Shown in pieces: positions 5,190 to 47,870 of a stretch of 64,000 nt of DNA (position 1 is the stretch's first letter; each line of letters begins with the position of its first letter). Both the position numbers and the translations under genes were made by a program. This DNA comes from Spirochaetia bacterium. Its GTDB lineage: Bacteria; Spirochaetota; Spirochaetia; SZUA-6; Bin103. Below the pieces are notes generated by a model. The model saw nothing but the letters and a program-made list of their open reading frames with translations, was not told the origin of the DNA and made no database searches. The DNA lies in contig OZ241863.1 in the NCBI GenBank assembly GCA_965203055.1, positions 3,034,545 to 3,098,544 of the forward strand. Reading direction: 5' to 3'.

Positions 5190-5249
5190 CGCGCGCTCGC
5201 CGGCTGCGTTGGGCCGCCCCTCACCGCCCCGGCGGCAGGCAACGGAAGA

Positions 5250-7196: not shown

Positions 7197-8384
7197 ATGA
7201 GCCACGTCAAAGAGCTCAAGCAACACAGCCGACAGGAAGCGCAGGCAGGGATGTCGGACAACGGCGCATCGGCAGGTCCGCGACCGCGGCTGAAGAGCGT
7301 CAAGGTCAAGGGGTTCCGGTCCATCAAGGAGATGGATTTGGAGATGCGGCCGCTCAACGTCTGCATCGGCGCCAACGGCGCAGGAAAGAGCAACCTCATC
7401 GCGTTCTTCAAGCTGATAAACGAAATGATGGGCGGACGACTCCAACAATACTTCGGCACGACCGGACGGGCCACCGCCAATCTGTACTTCGGACCCCGCA
7501 TAACTCCGCAAATGGAGGTGGAGCTGGACTTCGAGGTCGATAGAGGAACCAACGCGTACCGCATGAGGCTCGTTCACGCGGCCGATGACTCGGTGATCTT
7601 CGCCGATGAGTCGGTCTCCTTTCACCAGGAAGGCCATGATCTGCCTCAGCTAATGTCGTTGGGCGCCGGGCATCAGGAGACGCGTATCAGAGAGGACTCG
7701 ATATACGATCCTCTCCCGAATACCCTGAGGCACCTATTGAGTCACTGCCGCGTGTACCACTTCCACGATACGTCGCAGACTGCGCGCGTTCGCCAGTACT
7801 GTTACGTTGAGGACAGTAAGTGGCTCATGCCCGATGCAGCGAATCTTGCCGCCGTTCTCCATCGGCTGAAGACCGAGAACGAGCTGGTCTACCGGCAAAT
7901 CGTGAGGAACGTGAAACAGGTAGCGCCGTTCTTCGTGGACTTCGATCTCCAGCCTTCCGGGCGCAACAAGACCGACATCATTCTCAACTGGAGACATAGA
8001 GATTCCGATCTGGTATTTGGGCCGCATCAGCTATCCGATGGCACCTTGCGCGCAATCTGCCTGATCGCGCTGCTACGGCAGCCACACGAGGACTTGCCGT
8101 ACCTGATCGTGGTTGACGAGCCGGAGCTCGGTTTGCACCCGCATGCGCTCGACATGATCGCTTCGTTTTTTCAAGCCGCGAGCGAGCACGCCCAAGTGCT
8201 CATCAGCACGCAGTCCAGCGCGTTCGTCGACGCCTTCGATCCCGAGGACATCGTGGTGGTCGAACGAGACTGCGAAGCCACGACATTCACGCGACCCGAC
8301 GCCGAGAAACTCGGCGCGTGGCTGGAAGACTACTCGCTCGGCGAAGTATGGGAAAAGAACGTCATAGGCGGCGGACCGCACTGA
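7197..8384 (+). CDS. AAA_21/ABC-type (OLD/AbiLi/AriA-like) ATPase
   Basis: Walker A GANGAGKSN, signature-like LSDGTLRAI, Walker B LIVVDEPELGLHP. GGAG sits 7 nt before the ATG at 7197; alternative starts are 7158 (TTG) and 7251. The stop overlaps the next gene's start (TGATG). Confidence 0.8.
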   Translation: MSHVKELKQHSRQEAQAGMSDNGASAGPRPRLKSVKVKGFRSIKEMDLEMRPLNVCIGANGAGKSNLIAFFKLINEMMGGRLQQYFGTTGRATANLYFGPRITPQMEVELDFEVDRGTNAYRMRLVHAADDSVIFADESVSFHQEGHDLPQLMSLGAGHQETRIREDSIYDPLPNTLRHLLSHCRVYHFHDTSQTARVRQYCYVEDSKWLMPDAANLAAVLHRLKTENELVYRQIVRNVKQVAPFFVDFDLQPSGRNKTDIILNWRHRDSDLVFGPHQLSDGTLRAICLIALLRQPHEDLPYLIVVDEPELGLHPHALDMIASFFQAASEHAQVLISTQSSAFVDAFDPEDIVVVERDCEATTFTRPDAEKLGAWLEDYSLGEVWEKNVIGGGPH

Positions 8385-9070
8385 TGCCCCGGCTCCACCT
8401 GTTCGCCGAGGGCCGTACGGAACAGGTCTTCGCTACCCAGGTGCTGCAACCGCACTTGGCGAATTTCGACGTGTGGCTGCATAATCCGATGTTGGTGGCT
8501 CACGCGCGTAAGAAGGGCCGCACCCATCGCGGGGGAGGCCGGCATTTCGAGCCAATGCAGAACGACATCATGCGGCGCCTCAAGGAGGACGCCAACGCCG
8601 ACGTGTACTTTACGACGATGGTCGATCTGTACGCATTGTATAACGACTTTCCTGGGCGCTCGGAGGCAGAGAAGGTGCGTGCCGATCCCTATAAACGTGT
8701 GGCGTCGCTCGAAGAATCATGGCGGAAGAAGACCGCGGACAATCGCTTCATCCCTTACATTCAGTTGCACGAGTTCGAAGCGTACCTGTTTGCCGACGTG
8801 TCGAAGTTCGCCGAGTGGCAATGCCCGATCCCTGCAATCACCGCGTTGCAGAACGTGGTTAACGAGGCGAAGTCTCCGGAGAGGATCGACGACGGGCAAC
8901 ACACCGCGCCATCCAAGCGGATTATCGCCCGGTTCGGTAAGTACAAGAAATTGAAGACCACCATAGGCCCGCAGATGGCAGAGATGATCGGCTTGTCGGC
9001 CATCAGGGCGAAGTGCCCTCACTTCCACGAATGGATCAGGCGGTTGGAGCGGCTCGGAACCGGCGTGTAA
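8384..9070 (+). CDS. DUF4276-family protein (possible TOPRIM-like effector), translationally coupled to the ATPase
   Basis: About 228 aa starting MPRLHLFAEGRTEQVF. Its length and conserved N-terminal Glu resemble DUF4276/RloB/AbiLii-type partners of AAA_21 ATPases. This family call is from memory, not a search. Confidence 0.6.
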   Translation: MPRLHLFAEGRTEQVFATQVLQPHLANFDVWLHNPMLVAHARKKGRTHRGGGRHFEPMQNDIMRRLKEDANADVYFTTMVDLYALYNDFPGRSEAEKVRADPYKRVASLEESWRKKTADNRFIPYIQLHEFEAYLFADVSKFAEWQCPIPAITALQNVVNEAKSPERIDDGQHTAPSKRIIARFGKYKKLKTTIGPQMAEMIGLSAIRAKCPHFHEWIRRLERLGTGV

Positions 9071-11911: not shown

Positions 11912-12220
11912 CTACTCATAGATGGTCTCTGCCGACTCCAGTATCGCCCGGCGGCGCAGGTGATTGCGGCTGCGCTCGACGCCGCGGCGGCTGACGAGAT
12001 CGACGTCCCGTCCGAATAGCGAGCGGAGTTCTTCCTCCATTTGGTGCAGGTCGAACAGCGTGTGGCGTGCGCTTTCGTCCAGGCTGACCAGCACGTCGAC
12101 GTCGCTTTCGGGTCCGAAGTCTTCGCGGAGCACCGAGCCGAACAGCGCGAGCTCGACCACGTTCCAGCGCTTGCAGAACTCGGCGAGCGCGGCGCGGTCC
12201 AGCGGTATCGCCTCGATCAT
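11912..12220 (-). CDS. MNT/MntA-type minimal nucleotidyltransferase (Pol-beta fold), nested between mod and res
   Basis: 102 aa with the core NTase motif LFGSVLREDFGPESDVDVLV. It is 8 nt downstream of the mod stop and 10 nt upstream of the res ATG. No HepT/DUF86 partner was found nearby. Confidence 0.8.
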   Translation of the reverse strand: MIEAIPLDRAALAEFCKRWNVVELALFGSVLREDFGPESDVDVLVSLDESARHTLFDLHQMEEELRSLFGRDVDLVSRRGVERSRNHLRRRAILESAETIYE

Positions 12221-12230: not shown

Positions 12231-14810
12231 TCATGGCCGTGACGAACCGTTGAGCGGGATCACCTTCAGGCTTTCGATGCCGCGGTCGTCGACGATCTTG
12301 ACCGCGGCCCGCTCGTGGGCGCCCGGCGCGAACGGCAGGGAGACGGTGCCGTGGTAGGCGGCGATCAACCGCTCGTCGATCTCGGTGCGGAGGCTGCGGG
12401 CGAGGCGCTTCCAGCCGTCGCGGGGGGAACCGGCCATGGGGAAGAAGACCTGGCGCGGAAACAGGCTGCGGCCGTCGTAGTCCGGGTCCAGCATCCACAA
12501 GGCGATGCGGTCGCCGCCGCCCGATTCGAGGCCGCCGGTGCGGGTGTTGTAGTAGTCGAACCCGTGCACGGCGACGCGCAGCTTGCCGGCGTGCTCGCCC
12601 GCCTCGATCCGCTCGACTTCGACTTCCGGCTGGCCGATCAGCCAGAAGCTCTCGTTGCCGGCGCGCTTGCGCTTGAGGTCGTCGGTCAGCAGGTCGGCGT
12701 TCATCTGCGCCTTGAGCAGGGTGACGCTCGGCCAGTTGGTCTCGTCGATGTCCTTGGCGGCTTCCGGGTCGAACTGGAAGGCGGCGAATACCAGGACGGT
12801 CGGCCGCGGCACCAGCGTCAGCGATTCCTCCAGGGCGCGGGTTACCTGGCGCTGCTCCAGCGGCGCGTGGTCGGGGCCGAACGAGACCACCGCCCGTTGC
12901 GCGTGATAGGCGGTGCCGGTTTCGCGGACGCGGTCCGCCCCGGAGGAGTCCGGGCGCGTGTCGCCCTCGGCGTGCAGCCAGCGGGTGCCGGGCAGCGGCT
13001 CGACCCGCGCGAAGGAGATGCGCTGGCCGGCCTTGCCGCGGATGCCGGTCTTCAGCAGCTCGTCGCGCCAATCGCCCTGCCGCAGCGTCTCGCCGGAGCG
13101 CGCGATCGACTCGTCAGCCGGCTGCTGCGGCGCTTCCAGCTCGTCGAGCGGCTGAACGGTTGGCGCGGGGACCGCCTCGACGGTGAAGGGGCCGGTGACG
13201 CGCGCCTTGCGCCGGTCCGGTTCCGGCTGGTCGTAGAGGATGGTCTCGACGGGCGGCTCGTCGTAGCCCAGGATTCTTGGCGAAACGGTGGCGACGCTGC
13301 GGTAGCGGAGCCCTGAGCCGATCCCTTCGTCGGGATGGGCCAGCTCGTAGTAGTCGAAGTTCGCGGTCATCAGCCGCTGGCGGGCGATGGCGACGGCCAC
13401 GCGCGAGGTGTCGCAGGTGATCCACCGGCGGCCCCACTGCTCCGCGACGTACGCGGTGGTGCCGGAACCGCAGGTCGGGTCGAACACCAGATCGCCGGGA
13501 TCGGTCGTCATGAGGATGCAGCGCTGAATCGCCTTGGCGGCGGTCTGTACGACGTACCGCTTGTCGGTGGGGGACATCGGCGCGGCCCAGATGTTGTTGA
13601 TGCGGCGCCCGGGCACTTCGTCTTCGTACCGCTTCCACATGAGCGAAGATTGCCCTTCCAGCGCTTCCAGCCGTCCCAACTCGGCCAGTCGATCCATACC
13701 GGCCGCGGAAATCGCCCAGTGGCGATCTCGACCACAACGAAAGACTCGTCCGTTCCATTCGTACGGTTCGGAACGCCCGGTCGTGGAGACACCCTGCGAA
13801 TCGAGCGGCATGCGCCGGTAGATACGTGCCCTTTTCGGAAGATTCTCGTCCGGGTCGAAACACTCTTCGGGCGTCGGTTTACGACAATGGCCGTCCGGCA
13901 ACTCGACCATGACGTGCCAACTGAAGGATTCGATCACCTCGGCGCGCGTGAGCAGCTCGTACAACTGGCGGTACTTGGTATGCTTCCGGTCCTTGGCGTA
14001 CCACAACAGATAGTCGGCGACCTCCGACAACGTCGTCGTCGAACTGGCGCCGGTCGTGGCGTACGAAATCGTCGCCATCCGGTTTTCGGCGCCGAAGATC
14101 TCGTCCATGACGAGGCCGGCGCGGTGCACGTTCTCGGGACCGATCTGCACGAAGCAGCTTCCGCTCTCGTGCAGCAACTCGCGCGCCAGCAGCAGGCGGT
14201 CGCGGAGATAGGCGAGATAGGAGTGGATGCCGAGCTCCCAGGTATCGCGGAAGGCGCGGATCTGCTCCGGTTCGGACGTCAGGTCCGCGTCCCGGCCGTC
14301 GGTGACCTCGCGCCGGTTCACGAACGGCTGGAAGTTGGAGCCGTAGCGGATGCCGTAGGGCGGGTCGAGGTAGACCGTCTGCACCCGCCCGCCGAGCCCT
14401 TCCTTCTCCAACAGGCTGTTCATCACCAGCAGGCTGTCGCCGGCGATCAGGCGGTTGCTCCAGTTATGCCGGTGGCGGTAGAATTCGATCGCCTGTCGGA
14501 TCGGCGGGTTCTCCTCGGGCGCGTCGAACAGCGAGCGCTGCCCCTCCGCGCCGTTGCGCCGGCGCACCGCCTCGACCACGGTGCGCGGGTCGATGCGCTC
14601 GTGCACGTGCAGCGAGACCGTCGGCACCGTGAACGAGGTGTGCTCGGCCTTCCCCGCCCAGTCGAGCCGCGGCTCCAGGTGCGGATCGTAGGCGTAGGCC
14701 GCCGCCCCCGCGTCCCGGTCGGTCTCCGGCGTCACCAGCCCCACCGGCGGATTGTTCGCCCGCTCCTCGGTATGGGCGTAGCTCTCGATCTCCCGCTTGC
14801 TCTTCGCCAT
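12231..14810 (-). CDS. mod: type III RM Mod subunit (N6-adenine/N4-cytosine DNA methyltransferase)
   Basis: 859 aa with motif IV DPPYGIRY and FxGxG-like motif I DPTCGSGTT. The N-terminus MAKSKREIE... is homologous to the second Mod at 57289. Confidence 0.85.
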   Translation of the reverse strand: MAKSKREIESYAHTEERANNPPVGLVTPETDRDAGAAAYAYDPHLEPRLDWAGKAEHTSFTVPTVSLHVHERIDPRTVVEAVRRRNGAEGQRSLFDAPEENPPIRQAIEFYRHRHNWSNRLIAGDSLLVMNSLLEKEGLGGRVQTVYLDPPYGIRYGSNFQPFVNRREVTDGRDADLTSEPEQIRAFRDTWELGIHSYLAYLRDRLLLARELLHESGSCFVQIGPENVHRAGLVMDEIFGAENRMATISYATTGASSTTTLSEVADYLLWYAKDRKHTKYRQLYELLTRAEVIESFSWHVMVELPDGHCRKPTPEECFDPDENLPKRARIYRRMPLDSQGVSTTGRSEPYEWNGRVFRCGRDRHWAISAAGMDRLAELGRLEALEGQSSLMWKRYEDEVPGRRINNIWAAPMSPTDKRYVVQTAAKAIQRCILMTTDPGDLVFDPTCGSGTTAYVAEQWGRRWITCDTSRVAVAIARQRLMTANFDYYELAHPDEGIGSGLRYRSVATVSPRILGYDEPPVETILYDQPEPDRRKARVTGPFTVEAVPAPTVQPLDELEAPQQPADESIARSGETLRQGDWRDELLKTGIRGKAGQRISFARVEPLPGTRWLHAEGDTRPDSSGADRVRETGTAYHAQRAVVSFGPDHAPLEQRQVTRALEESLTLVPRPTVLVFAAFQFDPEAAKDIDETNWPSVTLLKAQMNADLLTDDLKRKRAGNESFWLIGQPEVEVERIEAGEHAGKLRVAVHGFDYYNTRTGGLESGGGDRIALWMLDPDYDGRSLFPRQVFFPMAGSPRDGWKRLARSLRTEIDERLIAAYHGTVSLPFAPGAHERAAVKIVDDRGIESLKVIPLNGSSRP

Positions 14811-14844
14811 CCCCGTCCCGCATCCAGTCTACGCCAACCCACGA

Positions 14845-15605
14845 ACCATCGGGTAGAGTCGCGCCGGCGTCCCGCTCAGCCATGCCGGCCGCTGGAGAAC
14901 TGCGGGGGTGACCAAGCTCCTCGGCGTGTCGTCAGGTCCCGTCGCCGCCTGCCGCGGCCGCGCCGTTGGGTTGGCTCTTGAGCTTCTGATACTCCTGCTC
15001 GCCAATTCCGGTCGCCCGCTCGATCAACGACCAGTCGACGCCGGTCCGCAGGAAACCGTCGATCGTCTCCAACCGCCCCTCGCGCTGGCCGTCGCGGTGC
15101 CGCTGTTCGGCAACCGCTCGCATCTCGTTACGCATCTGGTCGCGCATCTGGTCGCGCCCTTCCTGGCGCAGCCGCTCGCCGCTCGTCATCAACTCCCCTC
15201 CTGCCGCTGTGCGGCTCAGTATATCGCCCATCGCCTCGGGCGTGTCTTCAGGCCCCGTCTCCGCGATATAGTGCATGAACATCTTCATGTCGTCCTGACC
15301 GCCGCTTCCTTCCCGCTCCAAGTCGTCCAGCAGCGGCCGCATCCGCGCCCGTGCCTCCCGCACCGCGCGGCTGAAGGCGTGCATCATCGTCAGTTGCAGC
15401 AACCGCGCCCGGACGCTGCCGGCCGCCTGCGCCGGCGACATTTGAGTCTGGTCGAACAGCACGTGCTCGAACCGGGGCAGCCATGGCCAGTCCCGCGTTG
15501 CGGCCGGAAACAGGTCAGCGAACTGCGGGGAGTGCTGCCAGCCGGTGGGACCCTGGTAGAAGACCAGCGGCAGGATCGGGCGCAGGTAGCCGGAATAACG
15601 GGCCG
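14845..15605 (-). repeat. repeat copy A: remnant of an Rpn-family (YhgA-like, transposase_31/PDDEXK_7) element
   Basis: About 95% nucleotide identity to 23115-24190. It encodes only the C-terminal roughly 220 aa of an Rpn protein (YLRPILPLVFYQGPTGWQ...GRLETIDGFLRTGVDWSLIERATGIGEQEYQKL). The nuclease core is absent. Confidence 0.7.
14932..15600 (-). pseudogene. truncated Rpn-family recombination-promoting nuclease/putative transposase (C-terminal fragment)
   Basis: Translation matches the Rpn C-terminal region only. Upstream, in-frame sequence is non-homologous read-through that the ORF track merges into a 624 aa artefact. Confidence 0.65.
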
Positions 15606-15743
15606 GCTGTCTGTGGCGCTTCAACGCGCGGCGGTCACGGCCGCCGAATCGATCACGACGGGGCAGCCGCCGCCGCAAGCGGGCGCCGTGGCCGGTGGAC
15701 AATCGACGCGCGTCATGCGCCGGCCAGGCCAGGCAGTCCGCTC

Positions 15744-16859
15744 TCAGGAGGAGTAGGGATCGGCGGCGTCGCGCAGGCCGTCGCCGAGGAAGTTGTAGAG
15801 CAGCACCGTAATCACCACGAAGATGCAGGGGATGAGCAGCCACGGCTGACTCGCCACCGCCTGGAAGTTCTGCGCGTCCTGCAGCAACGTGCCCCAACTC
15901 ACCGCCGGCGGCTGGATGCCGAGCCCCAGAAAGCTCAGCGCGGTTTCGCCCAGGATCATCGCCGGAATCGCCAGCGTCAGCGACACGATGATGTAGCTCA
16001 GGAACGACGGCAGCAGGTGCCCGAAGATGATGGCGCGTTCGGGCGCCGCCGACACCACCGCGGCCATCACGAAGTCCTCCTCCCGCAGGGACAGGAAGCG
16101 GCCGCGCACCACGCGCGCGAGCTGGGTCCAGCCGACCAGCGACAGGATCAGCGTGATGGCGAAGTAGGTGGTGAGCACGCTCCACTGCCGGGGTACCGCC
16201 GCGGCCAGCCCCATCCACAGCGGAATGGTGGGAATGGAGGACAGCAGGTCGACCAGCCGCATCACCACCCGGTCCGCGATGCCGCCAAAGTAGCCGGCCA
16301 GCCCGCCTAGCAGCACTCCCAGAACGGTGCTTACCGCCACCCCCACCAGGCCGATCGACAGGGAGATGCGGGCGGCGTGGAGCACCCGCGAAAACAGATC
16401 GCGCCCCAGCCGGTCGGTACCGAACAGAAACAGGGGCGCCCCGTCTGCGGCTTCCGCGTCCGGCACGAACAGATGCGCGCGCGTCTTGAACAGGCCCCAG
16501 AAGCGGTACTCCTCGCCGGCGCCGAAGAACCGGATCGGGTAGCGCCGCTCGCGGTCGAGCTCGTAGATCTTGCGCATCGTGTAGGGGTGGCGCTCCTGCC
16601 GCAGGCCGTACACGTACGCCCCGCCGGCGCCGCCGGCCAGTCGGATGAGATTCGGCGGCGCGTTCAGGTAGTCGGGAAAGCGCGTGGTCACCCCGTACGG
16701 GGCGACGAAGTCCGCAAACAACGCCGCCGCGTACATGAGCGCCAGGGCGGGGCCCGCCACCAGCGCCAGCCGGTGGCGGCGAAACTTCCACCACATCATG
16801 CGCCACTGCGACGCGACGTAGTAGCGGTCGTCGGCGCCCGCCCGCGCGCGCGTGCTCAC
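15744..16859 (-). CDS. peptide/nickel ABC transporter permease (OppC/DppC-like)
   Basis: 371 aa with multiple TM segments and the EAA-loop region typical of OppC. Its ATGA overlaps the upstream permease. Confidence 0.85.
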   Translation of the reverse strand: MSTRARAGADDRYYVASQWRMMWWKFRRHRLALVAGPALALMYAAALFADFVAPYGVTTRFPDYLNAPPNLIRLAGGAGGAYVYGLRQERHPYTMRKIYELDRERRYPIRFFGAGEEYRFWGLFKTRAHLFVPDAEAADGAPLFLFGTDRLGRDLFSRVLHAARISLSIGLVGVAVSTVLGVLLGGLAGYFGGIADRVVMRLVDLLSSIPTIPLWMGLAAAVPRQWSVLTTYFAITLILSLVGWTQLARVVRGRFLSLREEDFVMAAVVSAAPERAIIFGHLLPSFLSYIIVSLTLAIPAMILGETALSFLGLGIQPPAVSWGTLLQDAQNFQAVASQPWLLIPCIFVVITVLLYNFLGDGLRDAADPYSS

Positions 16860-17854
16860 GACTCGAGGCGATCGAACCGGATGCGGGGATCGACCCAGGC
16901 CAGCACGATGTCCGAGATGAGGTTGCCGACCAGCACCAGGACGCTGAGGATCAGCACGAAGCTGCCCGCCAGGTACATGTCCTGCGCCTGCAGCGCGCCC
17001 AGCAGCACCGGCCCGGTCGTCGGCAGATTGAGCACGATCGAGGTGATGGTCGCGCCGGAGATGATCGCCGGCAGCAGCCAGCCGATGCCGCTGATGATCG
17101 GGTTGACGGCAAGCCGCACCGGATACTTGAACAGCAGCCGGCCTTCACCGACCCCCTTGGCGCGCGCGGTCACCACGTACTGCTTGCGCAGCTCGTCCAG
17201 CAAGGTGCCGCGCATGACGCGGATCAACCCCGCCATCCCCGCGGTCCCGACCACCAGGACCGGCGCCCAGAGCCGTTGCAACATGCTCCACACCCGCGCC
17301 AGACTCCACGGCGCGTCGACGTACTCGGGCGCGAACAACCCGGTAATGGCGACGCCGAAGTAGCGGAACGCAATCCACAGGAGCACCAGCGCGAGCAGGA
17401 AGTTCGGGATCGCCAGCCCCACGAATCCCCAGAAGGTCCAGAAGTAGTCGAAGAAGGAATACTGCCGCACCGCCGAATAGACGCCGATCGGCACCGCCGT
17501 CAGGTAGGTGAAGATCAGGGTCGAGATGGTCACCACCAGCGTCAGTCCGATGCGCTCGCCGATCACGGCGGACACCGGCCGGTCATGGGCGAAGGACCAG
17601 CCGAGGTTGCCGCGCAGCACGATGTTGCGCAGCCACAGCAGGTACCGGGTATGGACCGGCTTGTCCAGGCCGTAGTAGGCGGCGAGATTGGCCACCTGTT
17701 CGTCGGTGACCCGGTTCCCCTGGATCTCCAACTGCAGCATGTACGAGCTGAGATAATCTCCCGGCGGGAGCTCGATGATCGCAAAGCTCACCGCCGAGAT
17801 CAGGAACAGGAGCGGCACGAAGGCCGCCACCCGGCGCGCGACGTATTCAAGCAT
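16856..17854 (-). CDS. peptide/nickel ABC transporter permease (OppB/DppB-like)
   Basis: 333 aa starting MLEYVARRVAAFVPLLFLISAVSFAIIELPPGDYL, a typical OppB N-terminus. The 1240 aa ORF in the track is a read-through artefact. Confidence 0.85.
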   Translation of the reverse strand: MLEYVARRVAAFVPLLFLISAVSFAIIELPPGDYLSSYMLQLEIQGNRVTDEQVANLAAYYGLDKPVHTRYLLWLRNIVLRGNLGWSFAHDRPVSAVIGERIGLTLVVTISTLIFTYLTAVPIGVYSAVRQYSFFDYFWTFWGFVGLAIPNFLLALVLLWIAFRYFGVAITGLFAPEYVDAPWSLARVWSMLQRLWAPVLVVGTAGMAGLIRVMRGTLLDELRKQYVVTARAKGVGEGRLLFKYPVRLAVNPIISGIGWLLPAIISGATITSIVLNLPTTGPVLLGALQAQDMYLAGSFVLILSVLVLVGNLISDIVLAWVDPRIRFDRLES

Positions 17855-17877
17855 GTCCCCGCCGGGGCGCGGCGCGG

Positions 17878-19800
17878 TCAGTTCCCGTAATAGAGCTGCT
17901 CCGCGCTGTAGATCACCCACTGCGCCACGCCCTCGGTAAACACGTTGCGCAGTTGCCGGTTGACGATCAGCACGGTAGCCGGATTGTAGGTCACGTTGAT
18001 CTGCGGGATGGTCTCGAAGAACGTCTGCCGGTAGCGGTCGACGATCTCCTGGTCCCACGGGATTCCGGGACCGATGCCCAGGCCCAGGTCGTACAGCTCC
18101 CGGAACCACGCCGGCGGCTCCTCGCCCTGTTCGCCGCCCGACCGGTACCACTGCCGCCACGGCGGAATGTGGTTGATCAGGTGGTCCTTGGCATGGCCGA
18201 AGGCATGCAGCGTGGTCGCCTCGTTCCACAGCGTGTCGATCTGGTACTGGTTGGCGTTGCGGCGCTCTATGAACAGGCCGATCTCCACCACCCCCAGGGT
18301 GGTATACAGCCCCACCGCGCGGTAATGCTCGACGACCAGCTCGTTGGCCGGCACCGTGTCCGGCAGGTGCGCGGTCACCTCCAGGGCGATCTCGAAGCGC
18401 GACCCGTCGGGCGCCAGACGCCAACCGTCGGCGTCGCGCTGGTCCAGGCCCACCGCATCCAGCAGCCGATTCGCCTCCTCGGGATCGTAGGCGGCGGGAA
18501 TCCACTCCGGCGGCGACGCGAAGCCGTAGTACACCGCGTCGATGATCTCGCCGCGGTCGATCGCCAGGTTCAGCGCTTGGCGGAAGCGCAGGTCGCCGGC
18601 GAGCCGGCGCCACGTCGGGTCCTCGTAGCCGAAGTTGAAGGCGTGCACCACCGGGTTGTAGGCGACCCCGGAGGTGAGCGCCCGGTACCCCTTGTCCTCG
18701 TTTTCGCGGTAGAGCGGCAGGGACGATATCTTCGCCAGCTCGTCGGCCAGGTCGACCTCCCCGGCGATGATCTTGAGGCTGGCGCCCTCCGGACCCTCCA
18801 CCTTGGTGCTGACGATGCGGTCGATGTAGGGAAGCTGATTGCCGGCGGCGTCGACCTTGAAGTAGTAGGGGTTGCGCTCGAACACGGTCTGCGTCGGCGA
18901 GGTGCCGGTCACCACCCACGGATGCAGCACGGGAATGTCGACCACGTCCGGGGTCTTCGCTTCCCAGGGCGTGAGCATCTTGATCTGGAACAGGCGCGGC
19001 CACTCGTCGGCCAGCAGATCGGCGGCCGCGACCTTGGCCGCCAACTCCTCGGCGTCGGCGAAGTTGGCGTGGAACTGGGACAGGTAGTGCCGGGGCTGCA
19101 AGAAGCCGGTGTAGTCCATCCACGGCTTGTCGATTTCGTCCAGGAACCCGGGCGTCGGCGCCGAGAAGGTGATGCGATACGAGTAGTCGTCGATCACTTC
19201 CAGGTCGTAGACGTCCCCGGTGGGGCGCAGCCCGGAGCGGTACTGCCAGCCGACGTTGGGGGTGAGCTGCTCGTTGAGCAGGATCTCCTCGTAATGGAAC
19301 GCCACGTCCGCCGTGGTCAGCGGTTCGCCGTCCGACCAGCGCATGCCGCGGCGCAACTGAAAGGTGAACGTGGTGCCGTCCGGACTGATCTCGTAGCTCT
19401 CGTAGATGTTGCCGGTAAGCGGATGCCCCATGCTGATCCAGCCCGGCCGCGCCAGCAGCGTCTCGATGGTCATGAAGTACATCTCCGGCGCGAAGTTGGG
19501 CGCCAGGTTGATCAGCCGCACGTCGCCGCCGTAGGCGCCGATCGCCAGCTCGTCGAGCATGCCGTCGGGAGCGGCGCTCCGTTCCAGCGTGAGCACCAGC
19601 GGGTTCTCCGGGAGCCGCTCGTTCACCGGGGGCAGTTCGCCGGCGGCCACGCGCGCCGCCAGCAGCGGCGCTTCCTGATAGCCTCCGGCGCCGGTCGCGG
19701 CGCTCATGGGGGCGGCGCCTGCGGACTCTTCCTGACCGGTCGCCGCGGCCAGGACGCTGCCCGCCAGGAGCAGCGCAACTGTCATCAACACTCGATTCAC
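17878..19800 (-). CDS. ABC transporter substrate-binding protein, family 5 (peptide/oligosaccharide)
   Basis: Signal peptide (M)NRVLMTVALLLAGSVLAAA. A GTG at 19800 is preceded by GGAGG; an alternative ATG is at 19785. Family-5 SBP-like length and composition. Confidence 0.8.
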   Translation of the reverse strand: MNRVLMTVALLLAGSVLAAATGQEESAGAAPMSAATGAGGYQEAPLLAARVAAGELPPVNERLPENPLVLTLERSAAPDGMLDELAIGAYGGDVRLINLAPNFAPEMYFMTIETLLARPGWISMGHPLTGNIYESYEISPDGTTFTFQLRRGMRWSDGEPLTTADVAFHYEEILLNEQLTPNVGWQYRSGLRPTGDVYDLEVIDDYSYRITFSAPTPGFLDEIDKPWMDYTGFLQPRHYLSQFHANFADAEELAAKVAAADLLADEWPRLFQIKMLTPWEAKTPDVVDIPVLHPWVVTGTSPTQTVFERNPYYFKVDAAGNQLPYIDRIVSTKVEGPEGASLKIIAGEVDLADELAKISSLPLYRENEDKGYRALTSGVAYNPVVHAFNFGYEDPTWRRLAGDLRFRQALNLAIDRGEIIDAVYYGFASPPEWIPAAYDPEEANRLLDAVGLDQRDADGWRLAPDGSRFEIALEVTAHLPDTVPANELVVEHYRAVGLYTTLGVVEIGLFIERRNANQYQIDTLWNEATTLHAFGHAKDHLINHIPPWRQWYRSGGEQGEEPPAWFRELYDLGLGIGPGIPWDQEIVDRYRQTFFETIPQINVTYNPATVLIVNRQLRNVFTEGVAQWVIYSAEQLYYGN

Positions 19801-19926
19801 CGTGTTCCTCCGTCTCTCGGTCGGTCGTCGGTCGATGCAGCCCAGTATATGCCGGTCCCGCTGCGCCCACAATCGGCGGGGCAGCGGTCAGCAGCGGCCA
19901 GCGGTTACCTGCCTCAAGCGTTACCG

Positions 19927-22900
19927 TTACCCGGTGAGCGGCACCCGGATGCGCCCGCCGGCGCCGGGACCGAAGTCGGCGGAGGCTTCCGCTACGGGAC
20001 GGCCGCCGGCATCGAGCACCCGGGCCGTGTAGCGGGCGGCGGCCGGCACCATGTTCCGCGCCTCGATGACGACGGCGCCGCCTGAGCGCCACGCGCGCAC
20101 CCGATCGACCGTCTCCAGGGCGCCGACCCAGTCCCGTTGCGGCGCATCGCCCAGCCGGCAGGTCACGTCTCCGTAGCGGGCCAGGATTGGATCCACGTCC
20201 AAGCCCTCGGCCAGCATGTACATGCTCAGGATCGCCCCGTACTTGGTGGTCCAGTTGCCCCGGTAGGGCCAAGCCGGGAGCACGTCTTCCGTACCGCCGC
20301 CCAGGCAGGCGGCGTCGAACCGGGTATCGGGATTGAACGCATGCTGCGCCGGTACCCGCGCTTCCGACTGATAGTGCGCGTTGAGCCAGCGCCGCTTCTC
20401 TTCCGTCAGCGAGCTCTGCACCCCTTGATGCAGCAGCGCCCGGGCGCGCTCGAACCACTCCGGGTCGGCGGTGTGACGCCACAGCCGCATCAGCTCCGCG
20501 GCGCCCTGGGCGTATACCAGATTGTTGGTGGAGTACTTGACGTCGACGGTGGTGCCGCCGACCGTCCGGTAGTCCCAACGGCCCAGCGGCAGGTGCTCCA
20601 GGCCGTCGGTGCGGACGTTGTAGTGGTACTGCCAGCTCCCGAACCAGCTCGCCGCCACTTCCGCGGCGGCCAGCCAGCGCCGGTCGCCGGTGGCGGCGTA
20701 CAGGTCGTTGTGGGCGGCCAGCAGCGCGTGGCCCTGGCGCTTGTCGATGTTGTAGAAATCCATCTCGGAGCCGGCGAAGACCGCGAAGCGCTCCATCACC
20801 TGCAGCGCCAGCTCGCCCAGCCGCACGGCGTAGTCCAGATAGCGCTGCTCGTTGCAGTGGCGGGCGGCCCGCACGTACGCCCAGATCAGATAGATGAAGT
20901 TGGTGGCGCCGCGCTCGCTCGGCTTGAGGAAGCGGATGTCCGCCGCGCGGGTCTGACGGTCGGTCCAGCGCGAGCGCTCCCAGTAGAGGAGCCGGATGCG
21001 CCGCGCGGCCGGCTTGCCGGTGGCGCCGTCGATGCGCCCCGGTACGTCGGCGTCGGGAAACAGCTCCATGATCCGGTCGAGGGAGCCGCGCACCGCCGGC
21101 AGCCAGCTCCGCGGCGGCTCGCTCCCGTGCCGCCGGAACCGCTCGGCGCAGCGCAGATACCAGTACAGCCCCTCGCCCAGCGGCCCCACGTCGATGCGGC
21201 CGGGGTCGTAGTAGGTGCCGAAGGCGTCGACGATCCCGGCGTGGTCCTCATGGTAAGTGGGATAGAGGATGCCGAGCGGCGAAATGCCGTGCTCGGCGAA
21301 GAAGTCGAGTGTGTCGACGGCGACCCGCACCGCGCCGCCGTCGTCGTGGCGCAGGCCGTGATCGAGGGCCGCATGGGCCGCCAGACCGGCCATGCCGGAC
21401 CATGAGAAGCCGACGAAGCGATGGAAGTATTCCTTGGGCAGGAACCGCCCGTCGCCGGCCGGCGCATCGCCGTACACCCAGCGACCGACGTAGAAGACGC
21501 GGTAGGTCCGCCCGCCGCGCGTGATCTCCTGCATCAGCCCGCGGTCGTCGAGCATGGTCCGCAGGCGCAGATCGCAGTCGGCGCGCAGGGTGTGCGGCGG
21601 GTTGGTGGGGGAGTCGGGGTAGAGCTGGCGCCACGCCGCCGAGAGCGCGCCGCAGTAGCCGGGCCGGTAGACGGCGCCGCGGCGGCGGGCGGCGGCGTAC
21701 AGATAGAGCGTCTTGGCGTACCGGGCGCCATCCTCCAGGGTGAGCCGTTCGTCGCTGTCCAGCAGCAGCCGGCGTCCGAACACGGCCGACTCCGGTACCT
21801 GATGCACCGCCTCGTACCGGCCCGACTCGGGGTCGACCTGCAACCGCACGCTAGCGGCCGCGTCGGCAGCGCGGCGCTGCGGCGCCGCCCAGCCGGCGCA
21901 CACCCGCTCCGCGTCCTCGACGCTGAACCCGGCGGGGAGCGTGGAGGCCGCCTCGGGAAAGTCCTCGCCCAGGTAGTGGCACGCCTCGGCGGTGGGGTTG
22001 CCGTCGTACAGGAGCCCGGGGTGCAGGGTATGGCGCGCATGCGCGGCGGCAATCGGCAGGCGGCTGGTGAGCAGCAGCTTGACCCCGCTCAGCGCCGTCC
22101 CCCGGTAGCGCCAAGTGACCGACACGCGCCACAGGTCGGCGGCGCATGGCGCGACCGCGGCGTCGCAATAGAGCGAGCCGACCACCCCGCCCCGGCTGCG
22201 GTCGCGTATCTCGAAGAGACCGCCCGCGCCGCCGGCGCCGTCGACGCCCTGCGCGGCGGTCACGGTGAACCGTTCCGGCAACAGCGTCTCGAAGTCGAAG
22301 TTGCGCGCGCGGTCTCCCGCTTCGTCGACGCGCCGCGGGCTCGGGGCGCCGTCGGTCTGGCGGATGTCGTCGACCAGGATGAAGCCCCAGTCATCCTCCG
22401 GATAGCGGGGCGCGGCGTGCCAACCCCACGGTTCCACGGGAGCGTAGTCGAGTATCTGCAGGTACGCCTGCCGGCCGCGGAACTCCGCCACGTCCCAGCC
22501 GCGCCGCACCAGCTCCAGGTTGCGTTCGCCGGTAGCGGACCGCACCCGTTCCCAGCCGGCGGCGCCGTTCACGTACAGGTTCAGGCAGGTGACGTCCGCG
22601 AAGTCGCCGCCGCCGATCAGGAAGTCGATGCCGGCGCCGGCGATGGTGAATACCTCCGACTGCAGCTCGCCGATCAGGGTGCCCAGATTGCGGTTCTTGC
22701 TGTTCACCAGGCGCCGGCCCTGAAAGCCGGTCACCGCTCCCTGGCCGGGGAAGGCGCCGAGCGCCGGCTGCATGCCGAACGCCGTTCCGTTGGGCCGCAC
22801 CTGGCCGGTGTCGTGGACGTTGAACGGAACCGAGCGAGAATCCCAGGCGCCGGCCACGGGATGCCATCCCCGGTAGCGGTTCTGGCGGATATCGATGCCG

Positions 22901-22965
22901 GCGGTCAGTTCGACGGCGGCGGCCGCCGGCCCGACCGGCCAGCGCAGCGCGGTGCCCGCGGTCAC
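19927..22965 (-). CDS. large glycoside-hydrolase/lyase-like protein (beta-sandwich + (alpha/alpha)6-like region), function unclear
   Basis: 1012 aa. Co-oriented with the SBP and permeases and rich in Trp/Tyr in the style of carbohydrate-active enzymes. No firm family call is possible by eye. Confidence 0.4.
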   Translation of the reverse strand: MTAGTALRWPVGPAAAAVELTAGIDIRQNRYRGWHPVAGAWDSRSVPFNVHDTGQVRPNGTAFGMQPALGAFPGQGAVTGFQGRRLVNSKNRNLGTLIGELQSEVFTIAGAGIDFLIGGGDFADVTCLNLYVNGAAGWERVRSATGERNLELVRRGWDVAEFRGRQAYLQILDYAPVEPWGWHAAPRYPEDDWGFILVDDIRQTDGAPSPRRVDEAGDRARNFDFETLLPERFTVTAAQGVDGAGGAGGLFEIRDRSRGGVVGSLYCDAAVAPCAADLWRVSVTWRYRGTALSGVKLLLTSRLPIAAAHARHTLHPGLLYDGNPTAEACHYLGEDFPEAASTLPAGFSVEDAERVCAGWAAPQRRAADAAASVRLQVDPESGRYEAVHQVPESAVFGRRLLLDSDERLTLEDGARYAKTLYLYAAARRRGAVYRPGYCGALSAAWRQLYPDSPTNPPHTLRADCDLRLRTMLDDRGLMQEITRGGRTYRVFYVGRWVYGDAPAGDGRFLPKEYFHRFVGFSWSGMAGLAAHAALDHGLRHDDGGAVRVAVDTLDFFAEHGISPLGILYPTYHEDHAGIVDAFGTYYDPGRIDVGPLGEGLYWYLRCAERFRRHGSEPPRSWLPAVRGSLDRIMELFPDADVPGRIDGATGKPAARRIRLLYWERSRWTDRQTRAADIRFLKPSERGATNFIYLIWAYVRAARHCNEQRYLDYAVRLGELALQVMERFAVFAGSEMDFYNIDKRQGHALLAAHNDLYAATGDRRWLAAAEVAASWFGSWQYHYNVRTDGLEHLPLGRWDYRTVGGTTVDVKYSTNNLVYAQGAAELMRLWRHTADPEWFERARALLHQGVQSSLTEEKRRWLNAHYQSEARVPAQHAFNPDTRFDAACLGGGTEDVLPAWPYRGNWTTKYGAILSMYMLAEGLDVDPILARYGDVTCRLGDAPQRDWVGALETVDRVRAWRSGGAVVIEARNMVPAAARYTARVLDAGGRPVAEASADFGPGAGGRIRVPLTG

Positions 22966-23114
22966 CGGCCCTCCGCGTGCGGCGCGCCCGCCGGGACGGC
23001 GGGCAACGAGATGGTGAGCGGCGCGCCGGGTCCAGCCTCCGCTATGGCGTGCGATGTCGCGACGACGGTCGGGCGCGTCATGCGACGGCTATGCGGTCCG
23101 CAACTCCGATACCG

Positions 23115-24190
23115 CCGGACGAGTCGGTCCTGCGCGCCGGCATCCCGCTCAGCCGTGCCGGCGGCTCCTGGTGAACGGCGGGGTGACTGATTTCCTCGGC
23201 GTGTCGTCGTCAGGTCCTGTCGCCGCCCGCCGCGGCCGCGCCGTTGGGTTGGCTCTTGAGCTTCTGATACTCCTGCTCGCCGATCCCGGTCGCCCGCTTG
23301 ATCAACGACCAGTCGACGCCGGTCCGCAGGAAACCGTCGATCATCTCCAGCCGCCCCTCGCGCTGGCCTTCCAGGCGGCCTTCGCGGTGGCCTTCCTGTT
23401 GGCCTTCGCTCCGGCCCTCGCGGTGCCGCCGTTCGGCAACCGCTCGCATCTCGTCGCGCCCTTCCTGGCGCAGCCGCTCGCCGCTCGTCATCAGCTCCCC
23501 TCCTGCCGCCGTGTGGCTCAGTATATCGCCCATCGCCTCGGACGTGTCCTCAGGTCCCGTCTCCGCGATCGGCTCGCCGGTATCGGGATCGATCGGCCCC
23601 CGATCGTAGTCAGGCCATCCGTTCCTGCCTGGGTAGTAGTAGTGGTCGTCATGGCCTGCCACCAACCTGAACGACCCATCTGCGGAAGCGATGCCTTCCA
23701 GATCGGCCAGATCGTCGTGCCAATCTGTATCGTCGAGATCCTCCGGTGGGGGCCGGTCGAGCGGTCGACCGGAGTAGTCGCTGTCTACGGAAGCTTTCTT
23801 CTTGCCCATCCCTTCGCCATCAATAGCCTGTCGATATAGTGCATGAACATCTTCATGTCGTCCTGACCGCCGCTTCCTTCCCGCTCCAAGTCGTCCAGCA
23901 GCGGCCGCATCCGCGCCCGCGCCTCCCGCATCGCGCGGTTGAAGGCGTGCATCATCGTCAGTTGCAGCAACCGCGCCCGGACGCTGCCGGCCGCCTGCGC
24001 CGGCGATATCTGAGTCTGGTCGAAGAGCACGTGCTCGAACCGGGGCAGCCATGGCCAGTCCCGCGTTGCGGCCGGGAACAGGTCAGCGAACTGCGGGGAG
24101 TGCTGCCAGCCGGTGGGCCCCTGGTAGAAGACCAGCGGCAGGATCGGGCGCAGGTAGCCGGCATCCTGGTGGTCCCGGCGGTCGTGCTCC
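23115..24190 (-). repeat. repeat copy B: Rpn-family remnant carrying a 272 bp mini-gene insertion
   Basis: Collinear with copy A at about 95% identity, except for an insertion at 23567-23838 encoding MGKKKASVDSDYSGRPL.... Confidence 0.7.
23210..24190 (-). pseudogene. truncated and interrupted Rpn-family nuclease/putative transposase fragment
   Basis: Same truncation point (YLRPILPLVFYQG) as copy A. The reading frame is disrupted by the 272 bp insertion. Confidence 0.6.
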
Positions 24191-24287
24191 CAGATGCGGC
24201 AGCAGTAGCCGGGCGGCGGTGGCGGTGCCTGACCCGCTCGGAGTATGGTGGCAGTGGATCGCGGCGTCCCGATCCAGGCGTTCAATC

Positions 24288-25160
24288 ATGGCATCCAGCG
24301 TTCTGAAAGAGATCGACCGGCTCAAGGGGGAGCTCGACGAATTGCGGCCGCTGCCGCCGGAGGTGGTCGCCCGCGTCGAACAGAAGCTGCGGATCGAGTC
24401 CAACTACCATTCCAACGCGGTCGAAGGCAATGCGCTCACCCTGGGCGAAACCCGGAGCCTGATCCTCCATGGCCTCACCGCGCGCGGCAAGCCGATGCGC
24501 GACCACCTGGACATCCAGGGACACGACCAGGCCGTCAAGACGATCGAACGGGCGGTCAAGGACGAAGAACCGCTCACCGAAGTCTTCATCCGCAACCTCC
24601 ATCGCGTGCTGTTGAAGGAACCGTACGAAAACGCGGCGGTCACCCCGGACGGCCGCCGCTCCACGCGCCGCATTACGCCCGGCGACTACAAGACCACGCC
24701 GAACAACGTGGTGACCTCGACCGGCGAGATATATCACTTCACGCCGCCGGAGCAGGTGAAGCCGGCGATGAGCGATCTCATCGACTGGTACCGCGCTCGG
24801 GAGGCCGCCGGCGAACATCCGATCATCACCGCCGCAACCGTCCACTACCGATTCGTGCGCATCCACCCGTTCGACGACGGCAACGGACGCATGGCGCGCC
24901 TGCTGATGAACCTGATCCTGATCCGGCACGGCTACACCGTGGCCATCGTCCAGAGCGACCACCGAGAGCGCTACCTGCAAGAGCTCGAACGCGCCGATCG
25001 GACCGAAGACCTCGCGCAGTTCATCGACTACATCGCCTCCTGCAGTCGGTATGCGCTGACCCTGTACCTCAACGCCGCCCGCGGGGAACCGATCGAAGCT
25101 CCTGAAGACATCGACCGCGAAATAGCGCTCTTCAAGCGCACCATCCTGCGCGACGCCTGA
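24288..25160 (+). CDS. Fic/DOC family protein (AMPylase-like) with an internal inhibitory helix motif
   Basis: HPFDDGNGRMARL Fic motif. The N-terminal SNAVEGN matches the (S/T)xxxE(G/N) auto-inhibitory motif. Confidence 0.85.
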   Translation: MASSVLKEIDRLKGELDELRPLPPEVVARVEQKLRIESNYHSNAVEGNALTLGETRSLILHGLTARGKPMRDHLDIQGHDQAVKTIERAVKDEEPLTEVFIRNLHRVLLKEPYENAAVTPDGRRSTRRITPGDYKTTPNNVVTSTGEIYHFTPPEQVKPAMSDLIDWYRAREAAGEHPIITAATVHYRFVRIHPFDDGNGRMARLLMNLILIRHGYTVAIVQSDHRERYLQELERADRTEDLAQFIDYIASCSRYALTLYLNAARGEPIEAPEDIDREIALFKRTILRDA

Positions 25161-25467: not shown

Positions 25468-25529
25468 GGCGCGGGGCAGCTTGGTACGGATGATGCGGAA
25501 ACAACGCGTTGTTTGTACTATGGGAGTCG

Positions 25530-26915
25530 ATGGAACGGGAGTTCTCGGCCTTCCTCGGCGACTGGCTCCATACCAGGCCGCGCCGCCCGCTGGTGGTCCG
25601 CGGCGCCCGGCAGGTAGGCAAGACCTGGCTGGTGCGGGATTGGGCGGCGCGGGCGCGGCGCGTCCTGGTGGAGGTGAACTTCGAGCGCGACCCGCGGCTG
25701 CGGCGCTACTTCGACCAGCCTGACCCGCGCCGCATCTTCGACGATCTCACGCTGGCGCTGGGGGTAGCGGCTGCCCCGGAGCAGGCGGTGCTGTTCCTCG
25801 ACGAGGTGCAGGCGGCGCCCGAGGTGCTGGCGAATCTGCGCTGGTTCGCGGAGGAGCAGCCGGAGCTGCCGGTGGTCGCCGCCGGGTCGCTGTTGGAGTT
25901 CGGCCTTGCCGACTTCGCGTACAGCATGCCGGTGGGACGTATTCGCTACGGTTACGTGGAGCCGCTGAGCTTCGCCGAGTTCCTCGCGGCGCACGGGCAG
26001 ACCGCGCTGCGCGACCGGCTGGCGCGGTGGCGCCCGGAGGAACCGCTGGCGGCCGCGGCGCACGATGCCGCCGGCCGCTGGTACGAGCGGTATGCCATGG
26101 TCGGCGGCATGCCCGGCGTGGTGGCGCAGGACGCCGCGGGCGCCCCGGCGGCGGAGTGCCGCTCCCTGCAGCGGGACCTGCTGCAGACCTATCGCGACGA
26201 CTTCGCCAAGTACGCCGGCCGCACCGAGCACGGGCTGCTGGATTCGGTACTGCTCGCCGTGATCGCCGCGCTGGGCGGCAAGTTCGTCTACCGCCGGGTT
26301 GGTGACGGCGTCAAGCATCACCAGGCGAAGAAGGCCCTGGAGGCCCTGGTCATGGCCCGGTTGTGTCACCTGATTCCGCACAGCGGCGCCAACGGCGTTC
26401 CGCTTGCCGCCGAGGCCAGCGACCGCGTCCGCAAGGTGGGGTTGCTCGACGTGGGACTGGCCCATGGGCTGTGGAACACCCCGGCGGGACGCGGCTTCCC
26501 GCGCTGGAGCGACCTCCCGCCGCAGCTCGCCGGCGGTCTGGCCGAGCAGATGGCGGCGCAGCAGTTGCGCATCGCCACCGGGAGCGCCGCGGTCACCGGG
26601 CAGTTGTTCCACTGGCGCCGGGAAGGCGGCCGCGCCGGCGAAATCGACTACTTGATGGAAGCCGGCGCCCGCGTCGTCCCGATCGAGGTCAAGAGCGGCG
26701 CCGTCGGCGCGATGAAGAGCCTGCACCAGTTCATGTACGAGAAGCGGCTCCCGCTGGCCGTTCGGCTGGACCGCAATCCCCCGTCGCTGCAACAGGTCGA
26801 CGTCCGCACCACCCTGGGGAATCCGGTTCGCTACCGGCTCCTGAACCTCCCGCACTATCTGGCGTGGCGCGCGCCGGAGCTGGTCGAGCTGCTCGACTTC
26901 GGCGAACGCCCGTGA
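25530..26915 (+). CDS. AAA ATPase with DUF4143 C-terminal domain
   Basis: Walker A GARQVGKTWL and Walker B LFLDEVQ. Typical of the AAA_14/DUF4143 family. Confidence 0.75.
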   Translation: MEREFSAFLGDWLHTRPRRPLVVRGARQVGKTWLVRDWAARARRVLVEVNFERDPRLRRYFDQPDPRRIFDDLTLALGVAAAPEQAVLFLDEVQAAPEVLANLRWFAEEQPELPVVAAGSLLEFGLADFAYSMPVGRIRYGYVEPLSFAEFLAAHGQTALRDRLARWRPEEPLAAAAHDAAGRWYERYAMVGGMPGVVAQDAAGAPAAECRSLQRDLLQTYRDDFAKYAGRTEHGLLDSVLLAVIAALGGKFVYRRVGDGVKHHQAKKALEALVMARLCHLIPHSGANGVPLAAEASDRVRKVGLLDVGLAHGLWNTPAGRGFPRWSDLPPQLAGGLAEQMAAQQLRIATGSAAVTGQLFHWRREGGRAGEIDYLMEAGARVVPIEVKSGAVGAMKSLHQFMYEKRLPLAVRLDRNPPSLQQVDVRTTLGNPVRYRLLNLPHYLAWRAPELVELLDFGERP

Positions 26916-47866: not shown

Positions 47867-47870
47867 GACG

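Follow-up and report, generated by a model that had tools for sequence, protein, structure and literature searches.

The window analysed here, a stretch of 64,000 nucleotides (nt) on contig OZ241863.1 of a Spirochaetia bacterium, contains two incomplete rpn genes, which we call copy A and copy B, and between them a set of uptake genes, the cassette (Table 1). Both copies lie on the minus strand; the 3′ flank of copy A stops 49 nt short of the mod start codon, and about 78 nt separate the divergent Fic start from the 5′ end of copy B, in agreement with a preliminary description of the stretch, which had placed direct repeats beside these two genes. The repeat pair was recovered by a repeat search, by MAFFT alignment and by self-BLAST of the window, and the longest exact word common to both copies comprises 88 nt, as compared with a maximum of 15 nt in 200 shuffles; inverted repeats were not found in the repeat search of the window. 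In the global alignment, copy A extends from 14860 to 15596 (737 nt) and copy B from 23133 to 24164 (1032 nt), and the identity over aligned pairs is 91.3%, which lowers the previous estimate of about 95%; a 266-nt block within copy B had also gone unmentioned. The identity is 97.3% in the first 329 nt, 94% in the next 100 nt, 65% across an indel-rich zone of about 80 nt that encodes four-residue repeats, and 90% in the last 228 nt. Besides the 266-nt block, the copies differ by indels of 9 and 15 nt, which together make 24 nt or two 12-nt units.

Table 1. Features of the locus, with positions in the window.
Feature	Position	Strand	Description
Copy A	14860..15594	-	rpn gene lacking its first ~113 codons, with the conserved 72-nt 3′ flank (14860-14931)
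Conserved rpn 5′ flank upstream of copy A	15595..15676	-	~80 nt, starts GCGGCGGCGGCTGCCCCG
RpnS-like gene of copy A	14932..15205	-	Shine-Dalgarno sequence GGCAGGAGGGGAG (15193-15205), ATG at 15189, intact 85-aa open reading frame and stop codon
Copy B	23133..24209	-	rpn gene lacking the 5′ flank and its first ~97 codons; split by the 266-nt block; 3′ flank kept
266-nt block	23566..23831	-	bounded by ATCG repeats; only in the B-site copies of the window, L001 and L011
RpnS-like gene of copy B	23210..23507	-	Shine-Dalgarno site, ATG at 23491, intact 93-aa open reading frame and stop codon
OppC-like permease	15744..16859	-	last cassette gene; Pfam OppC_N, BPD_transp_1
OppB-like permease	16856..17878	-	Pfam BPD_transp_1_N, BPD_transp_1
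Family-5 solute-binding protein	17878..19872	-	Pfam SBP_bac_5, E=6e-47
1012-aa protein	19927..22965	-	no Pfam or NCBIfam match
GH116 tail remnant	22966..23031	-	last ~22 codons (PGAPLTISL...); left breakpoint of the operon fragment
Type III-like DNA methyltransferase (mod)	12231..14810	-	MTase_III, 495 bits; directly downstream of copy A
BPTD_3080/Type III-like endonuclease	9074-11899		PADLOC/NCBIfam
PDC-S09/MntA-like nucleotidyltransferase	11912-12220		102 aa; PADLOC/NCBIfam
Fic/DOC gene (SoFic/PDC-S04)	24288..25160	+	divergent from copy B
PDC-S01	25494-26915		PADLOC/NCBIfam
ZorD/DpdE-like SNF2 helicase	2472-5249		PADLOC/NCBIfam

An origin of the repeats from the Rpn family, with loss of the nuclease half, had already been proposed, and the profile matches bear this out. 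The Pfam profile PF04754 (Transposase_31, Rpn/YhgA) scores 33.7 bits in copy A and 42.9 bits in copy B, above the gathering cut-off of 21, and the matches cover only profile positions 92/96-197 of 203. No intact rpn gene is present at either site in the window itself, and the letters had thus not been misread. A search with the copy A peptide gave 89 homologues, the full-length proteins among them having 321-357 amino acids (aa), and many of the 89 are without the N-terminus or internally deleted (e.g., P0034, P0045, P0049 and P0071). The full-length relative P0002 passes PF04754 and also the NCBIfam model TIGR01784 ('Rpn family recombination-promoting nuclease/putative transposase'), with 59.8 bits against a cut-off of 52.1. 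To TIGR01784, copy A gave no match, and P0077, a relative of the open reading frame (ORF) derived from copy B, reached 21 bits, which is below the cut-off. Full-length relatives possess a PD-(D/E)XK core, with the motif D ... E-x-Q/K, in which D60 and Q86 are invariant and E84 nearly so, and this catalytic region, the N-terminal ~90 residues, is deleted in both A and B. Judged by these profiles, the window copies descend from members of the Rpn family and are themselves incomplete members. An intact solo rpn gene encoding 338 aa (P0007) lies by a sulfatase gene on a small contig (L017, 3461-4477), and P0007 is also recorded on a 4.56-Mb NCBI chromosome that carries the exact copy B ORF (P0048). 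As P0007 and P0048 occur on one chromosome, an intact paralogue is probably present at another place in the source genome or in that of a very close relative.

How the two copies became incomplete can be read from related contigs. P0048 has the same sequence as the 166-aa ORF of copy B, and its look-up led to the ENA contig L001, which is colinear with window positions 25365-15595 at 98.6% identity. Its gene order is Fic, copy B with the 166-aa and 199-aa ORFs, a 1009-aa gene, the solute-binding protein (SBP), OppB, OppC, an intact 330-aa rpn gene, and a tandem second rpn gene, so that the A site holds two tandem copies in L001 and a single one in the window. At the A site of L011, from the same sample, an intact 350-aa rpn gene is present; the B copy of this contig keeps rpn from about codon 19, with a distinct 190-nt deletion between GCGGAA(A/G)C repeats, and is separated from the 1009-aa gene by a Peptidase_M78 gene. 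On L015, a 76-kb contig with 16x coverage, both rpn genes are intact, one of 350 aa (P0002) by Fic and one of 338 aa after OppC; between these two genes the identity is about 95% over 1.1 kb, and L015 also carries the M78 module. The flanks are 98-98.6% identical to the window in L001 and L011, and 97-98% in L015. As rpn genes occur in many copies of 90-100% identity, which is a classic hazard for assemblers, the repeat arrangement could be regarded as an artefact of collapse or mis-joining. However, the same gene order across both repeats occurs in three independent metagenome contigs, L001 and L015 (16x) and L011 (2.7x), each with private structural differences, and an artefact is therefore hardly credible.

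As compared with L001 and L015, copy A has a 347-nt deletion that reaches from 7 nt 5′ of the ATG to about codon 113 and joins CCCGTTAT to TCCGGCTACC at 15595/15594; its frame is open from GYLRPIL through the stop codon (219 aa). The 5′ flank that still precedes copy A is also found ahead of full-length copies in L001-L007, L009, L011 and L015. In copy B, the near-repeats CCGCCGC(T/C)CG and CGCCTCCTCG bound a deletion of about 421 nt, the junction of which joins CCGCCGCCCG to GCTACTGC at 24210/24209. Upstream of GYLRPIL, copy B translates to GYCCRIWEHDRRDHQDA, the same residues as in the full-length proteins P0001 and P0002, and copy A is unrelated there. The rpn homology of B hence extends 44 nt (~15 codons) past that of A, to about 24209, and BLAST to related loci places the boundary at about 24208-24224 for B and at 15596 for A. 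The left breakpoint of the deletion in the window's copy B also differs from that in L011, and the deletion junctions at A and B lie at short repeats of 2-10 nt.

The preliminary description had stated that both copies are cut at exactly the same residue and that the duplicated unit was therefore already a remnant. In such a model, A and B would share one truncation event and could be, for instance, the ends of a segmental duplication. A and B indeed stop aligning at a single point (15596/24164), and with 97.3% identity in the core they are the closest paralogues apart from positional orthologues. But the alignment stops there because this point is the endpoint of A's own deletion; the additional 44 nt in B and the junctions, which differ on both sides, do not agree with a shared truncation, nor do the intact genes at both sites of L015 and at the A site of L001 and L011, or the B copy of L011 with rpn from about codon 19. 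A single truncation event before the duplication is thus very improbable. Because intact genes exist at these sites and the junctions differ, the truncations of A and B must be independent and postdate the duplication: the comparisons indicate that A and B were once full-length, and that each lost its nuclease half by its own deletion at short repeats.

The 266-nt block shifts the rpn frame and provides the start codon of a chimeric 199-aa ORF (23210-23809; cluster P0077, 14 member sequences), which is encoded in L001 and L011 as well. Since the block is present in every B copy with a 5′ deletion (window, L001 and L011) and absent from the intact B copy of L015, it is plausible that the insertion came first and parted the nuclease from the C-terminal domain, and that independent 5′ deletions followed later. 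A probable source of the block is the 5′ end of genes of another family. The ORF that it opens reads MGKKKASVDSDYSGRPL, and an 85-aa ORF at 56277-56534 on the minus strand has the similar N-terminus MGKQKEEADETQAVDSDYSGRPL.

The family is multi-copy in related genomes. OZ241907.1 ('MAG: Spirochaetia bacterium', a GTDB genome of 4.14 Mb) carries at least 12 rpn copies or fragments among the loci that were fetched, five full-length and seven partial; all seven partial copies keep the 3′ end, and two are located just downstream of a full copy. In a 301-nt core, A and B are 97.3% identical, the window's copy B equals that of L001 (100%), and the tandem copies of L001 are identical to each other; adjacent copies in OZ241907.1 reach 98% and dispersed copies 90-94%, neighbours overall having 97-100%. 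Because neighbouring copies are most alike, local duplication, conversion or both appear to dominate. The conserved rpn 5′ leader has about 95 nt, with the homology ending at about -45 to -95 in 10 aligned upstream flanks, and on the 3′ side the homology ends anywhere between +7 and +170 nt in nine aligned downstream flanks. Terminal inverted repeats (TIRs), target-site duplications (TSDs) or fixed element ends were not found in these flank alignments. All of this agrees with published rpn genes, which have variable ends without TIRs or TSDs, form arrays by tandem direct duplication, are enriched beside defence genes, and can be followed by stand-alone rpnSs genes (Zhong et al. 2023, PMC10400941). 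A hairpin-like motif, CGGCGG-CCGTGA-CCGCCG, is found about 55 nt 5′ of the rpn start codon (window ~15620-15645), with an equivalent in all rpn 5′ leaders. In the flank alignments, this motif shows no compensatory changes, variants disrupt the stem, and covariation support is absent.

What remains of A and B includes the region of RpnS, a small protein that is made from an internal start in rpn genes and that blocks the RpnL nuclease; its four-residue repeats, variable in number, start 8-20 residues past the methionine, and neutralization needs a matching number (Zhong et al. 2023). Each window copy has an intact ORF of this kind (Table 1). The Shine-Dalgarno motif GGCAGGAGG(G/C)GAG, an ATG 4 nt later, and an open ORF are found in 14 of 14 copies that carry the RpnS region. 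Lengths among them are 70, 73, 74, 77, 81, 85, 89 and 93 aa, and in the 12 copies with a normal C-terminus they step by four residues (73-77-81-85-89-93, or 70-74); in the partial copy L005b, the ORF of 70 aa finishes in a frameshifted C-terminal tail. The repeats (EGRD/QMRD/EGRL...) start at residue 10, within the published range for RpnS, and this hypervariable repeat region corresponds to the zone in which A and B are least identical. In B, the 266-nt block is located upstream and leaves the repeat region intact. An AlphaFold2 model of the RpnS-like protein of copy A has one long and two short helices (3-49, 53-60 and 64-72; mean pLDDT 74.6). The 3′ end is retained in 9 of 9 partial copies examined, which we attribute to antitoxin loss not being tolerated: a deletion that takes away the toxin half would be tolerated or selected, but one that takes away the antitoxin part would not. 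As orphan antitoxins, the two RpnS-like ORFs may still be expressed, which we hold to be a genuine possibility, though we would not favor it over the opposite.

The genes between the copies belong together and have a history of their own. The preliminary description had listed a glycoside hydrolase-like gene, a family-5 SBP and OppB/OppC-like permeases without ATPase genes, and the Pfam matches concur for the SBP and the permeases; by Pfam and NCBIfam, no ATPase gene is located between A and B. In relatives, the gene of the 1012-aa protein is always directly downstream of a GH116 gene, and in the window the 1012-aa gene begins with a GTG that overlaps the stop codon of the GH116 remnant. About 11-24% of the length of this protein resembles parts of GH32 and GH116 proteins, and its orthologues in other Spirochaetaceae have 78-88% aa and 83-87% nt identity. 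The operon order in L012 and L014 is GH116, the 1009-aa orthologue of this protein, (TrkH), SBP, OppB and OppC, and L013 has GH116, an orthologue of 1087 aa and TrkH without downstream SBP/Opp genes. Neither rpn nor Fic nor mod is found near the operon in L012, L013 and L014, and the homology of the window to these loci is restricted to 22948-15749. By this comparison, the cassette is a 7.3-kb fragment of a conserved chromosomal operon for glycan/peptide uptake, and the absence of ATPase genes is therefore ancestral. A paralogous SBP_bac_5/OppB/OppC cluster with about 68% nt identity to the cassette lies at 42513-46709, and further BPD_transp_1 permease genes are present at 40606-41604 and 46823-48758. 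A third rpn unit right after copy B (GCGGAGGCTGG, ~23032-23042) was considered and dropped as unreliable, since in L015 the M78 module ends in sequence to which this stretch can be aligned as well.

The repeats had been proposed as substrates for deletion or amplification of the cassette, which remains plausible: the A-site copy number varies (one in the window, two in L001), and a locus without the cassette exists. This locus, L007 in OZ241907.1, has the order Fic, one internally deleted rpn gene, the start of a second rpn leader, about 830 nt, and mod/res; its Fic gene is 95% identical to that of the window and mod/res 95.5% identical to window 14862-9774. On its 5′ side, this rpn gene is an orthologue of B: from Fic through the intergenic region and over the first 26 codons, L007 and L015 are 93.5% identical, and of the second 5′ flank the first ~40 nt are present (34/39 matches by eye). 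L007 could stem from homologous recombination of A with B in a sister lineage, as it has a single rpn gene with a B-orthologous 5′ side and a 3′ part closer to A (84.6%) than to B (79%), is without the 266-nt block, and continues into mod/res. Yet the ~830 nt between rpn and mod, with two small ORFs, are unrelated sequence, the difference in similarity to A and B is mainly one of repeat number, and L007 equally fits a state before insertion of the cassette. We therefore consider such a recombination event possible but rather doubtful. A cassette-less variant, for which the preliminary description had recommended a search, does exist, but as L007 is neither a clean recombinant nor a clean empty site, it agrees with insertion as well as with deletion of the cassette.

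The preliminary description had also raised the idea that an Rpn-associated element mobilized host DNA. In its explicit form, the arrangement rpn-cassette-rpn would be an Rpn-bounded translocatable unit: recombination promoted by Rpn or relying on rpn homology would have cut a piece from the native GH116 operon and brought it into an rpn pair of the defence island, possibly via a circle that integrated by a crossover in rpn or its flank, and the unit could move again. The cassette does run from inside the GH116 3′ end to the OppC stop codon, outside its native context, and OZ241907.1 shows Fic-rpn-mod without the cassette, rpn being followed there by the short second rpn 5′ flank. An increase of RecA-independent recombination by Rpn proteins is reported by Kingston et al. 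2017 (PMC5350276), and an initiation of local recombination by RpnL has been put forward as a speculation (Zhong et al. 2023). On the other hand, the flanks are without TIRs, TSDs and fixed ends, all four haplotypes with an rpn-flanked cassette (window, L001, L011 and L015) share one Fic...mod locus on the chromosome, nothing similar was found among plasmids and phages by megablast, L007 is not a clean empty site, and no evidence for autonomous transposition of rpn was found in the study of Zhong et al. 2023. Mobilization as such a unit is thus possible but in our view unlikely, and we regard a capture of the cargo mediated by rpn units as about equally improbable.

The surroundings of the repeats, with the genes listed at the end of Table 1, are by their annotation a defence island. 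Three haplotypes of one metagenome differ in an insertion sequence (IS), in the M78 module, in the A-site rpn copy number and in the state of B, and the locus is therefore structurally unstable. The IS, with a DDE_Tnp_1_4 transposase of 486 aa, is located in L001 (799-2259) between the equivalents of window positions 25361 and 25365, and the window is without it. When window 14800-24300 was compared with plasmids and phages by megablast, only trivial matches to ABC transporters or none at all were obtained, so that the region does not belong to a known plasmid or phage. For the Mod, 102-aa nucleotidyltransferase and Fic proteins of the window, exact-protein look-ups returned no records, and the conserved mod-start motif had no match in a JGI metagenome scan. 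A second pair of direct repeats (31512-32095 and 35661-36649, 94-97% identical in parts) brackets about 3.5 kb with a PIN/DUF6364-like pair and a repeat-rich ORF, and a related copy occurs near rpn in L002 (1772-3229). Within the window, a 720-aa ORF at 32961-35123 is built of tandem ~114-nt units (repeats 33069-34467); relatives of this gene are found directly upstream of rpn at three other loci (L004 4116-5855, L006 1099-5481 and L016 1-139), which suggests a recurrent association of rpn with the repeat gene. A second gene for a Type III-like methyltransferase (MTase_III, 399 bits) is located at 57289-59247, followed by another large ORF at 59584-62364. The guanine-plus-cytosine (GC) content dips at 7000-9000 and 57000-59000, and the second methyltransferase lies in a stretch of 56-58% GC; at least two mod-like genes in 64 kb together with low GC suggest recently acquired DNA. 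An 800-aa ORF with DUF6242 contains degenerate internal repeats (5428-6893, 64-72% identical) and adjoins a SWIM protein and the ZorD/DpdE-like SNF2 helicase.

Taken together, the comparisons make it likely that a multi-copy rpn toxin-antitoxin family gave rise to both A and B, two paralogues that decayed independently around an operon fragment in a defence island. An rpn gene would have been duplicated locally into two copies of direct orientation, which fits with neighbours being most alike, and both would originally have been full-length RpnL/RpnS genes, as L015 still has them. The frame of B would then have been split by the insertion, and deletions would have removed the start codon and the catalytic core from each copy, and from B also the 5′ flank. 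Loss of the N-terminal half would have been tolerated or favored since it takes away a toxin, with the antitoxin part being kept. Between the resulting repeats of 0.7-1.0 kb, homologous recombination could then delete or amplify the cassette, as is suggested by the structural variation of the locus.

Several observations weigh against this interpretation or parts of it. With regard to RpnS, neither the 85-aa and 93-aa ORFs nor P0077 matched the DUF4351 profile (PF14261), even when E<=5 was allowed, and a sequence-profile search of the PDB with the family alignment returned only spurious DARPin and IMPDH matches and did not detect the C-terminal domain. Among 350,542 PDB chains searched with Foldseek, the top match of the copy A model is indeed E. 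coli RpnA-S (7TH0), which is a three-helix bundle with a long first helix, but with E=0.72 it is not significant, and with TM-scores of 0.37 (query-normalized) and 0.64 (target-normalized) the predicted fold kinship is suggestive only. Scans for sigma-70-like promoters and terminators around both copies were empty, which speaks against expression of the RpnS-like ORFs, and the 3′-end bias of partial copies is based on n=9, some of which were found by C-terminal probes. Homologous recombination between A and B was not directly observed in the compared loci and is predicted from the repeats, the unrelated stretch in L007 excluding a clean product there. As to the order of arrival, the cassette may have been inserted between the copies, or rpn may have arrived beside the cassette.

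All family-level features at this locus have already been described for rpn genes, and they do not constitute a new kind of system. The RpnL/RpnS genes-within-genes, which are toxin-antitoxin and phage-defence systems (Zhong et al. 2023; Kingston et al. 2017), are matched in several respects: full-length relatives score above the cut-offs of TIGR01784 and PF04754, the C-terminal ~70-93 aa are covered by an internal ORF that has a Shine-Dalgarno sequence, its length varies in 12-nt steps from about nine residues past the methionine, and tandem arrays have ragged ends without TIRs or TSDs and defence genes as neighbours. In contrast to those systems, the window copies have no nuclease core, function in this high-GC Spirochaetia lineage is a predicted one, and similarity to DUF4351 or the RpnA-S sequence is not detectable, the fold match being weak. 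Another parallel are stand-alone rpnSs genes (e.g., ypaA/rpnE-Ss and rpnC-Ss, annotated with DUF4351 in some species), which likewise are without the N-terminus, keep RpnS, lie near rpn in the same orientation, and originated independently from a local paralogue; L002b, L005b and L008 show the same pattern. The window remnants differ in that they still hold about 100-130 codons of a dead Transposase_31 domain upstream of RpnS, in that intact ancestors are documented at the same sites, and in that no intact rpnL adjoins them in the window. Composite transposons and IS26-type translocatable units also have direct repeats of a 'putative transposase' gene around out-of-context cargo, and such repeats permit deletion or amplification via homologous recombination. 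Unlike these, the present arrangement is without TIRs, a TSD and fixed ends, is seen at one locus, and has orthologous cassettes elsewhere without rpn. To our knowledge, no transposase activity of Rpn is known.

The one potentially important angle is whether rpn units may capture and move chromosomal cargo. In a combined reading, which we consider quite unlikely, the Rpn nuclease or rpn homology would have captured a 7.3-8.7 kb piece of a housekeeping operon for glycan uptake into the defence island and so made an Rpn-bounded translocatable unit, the toxins would later have been disarmed, and orphan RpnS would have been kept. If true, cargo mobilization in association with Rpn would here have its first natural example, and orphan RpnS of two repeat lengths would possibly neutralize other genomic RpnL paralogues. 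For the independent decay of two paralogues that we prefer, the meaning is a different one. Four co-existing haplotypes would trace the decay of rpn through an intact, an insertion-split and a 5′-deleted state to a toxin-less remnant that keeps the antitoxin ORF. In defence islands, ordinary operons would thereby come to lie between direct repeats of kilobase size that decayed copies have left. For annotation, this means that such copies should not be regarded as 'truncated transposases', and their recognition would help to explain structural variation in this Spirochaetia lineage.

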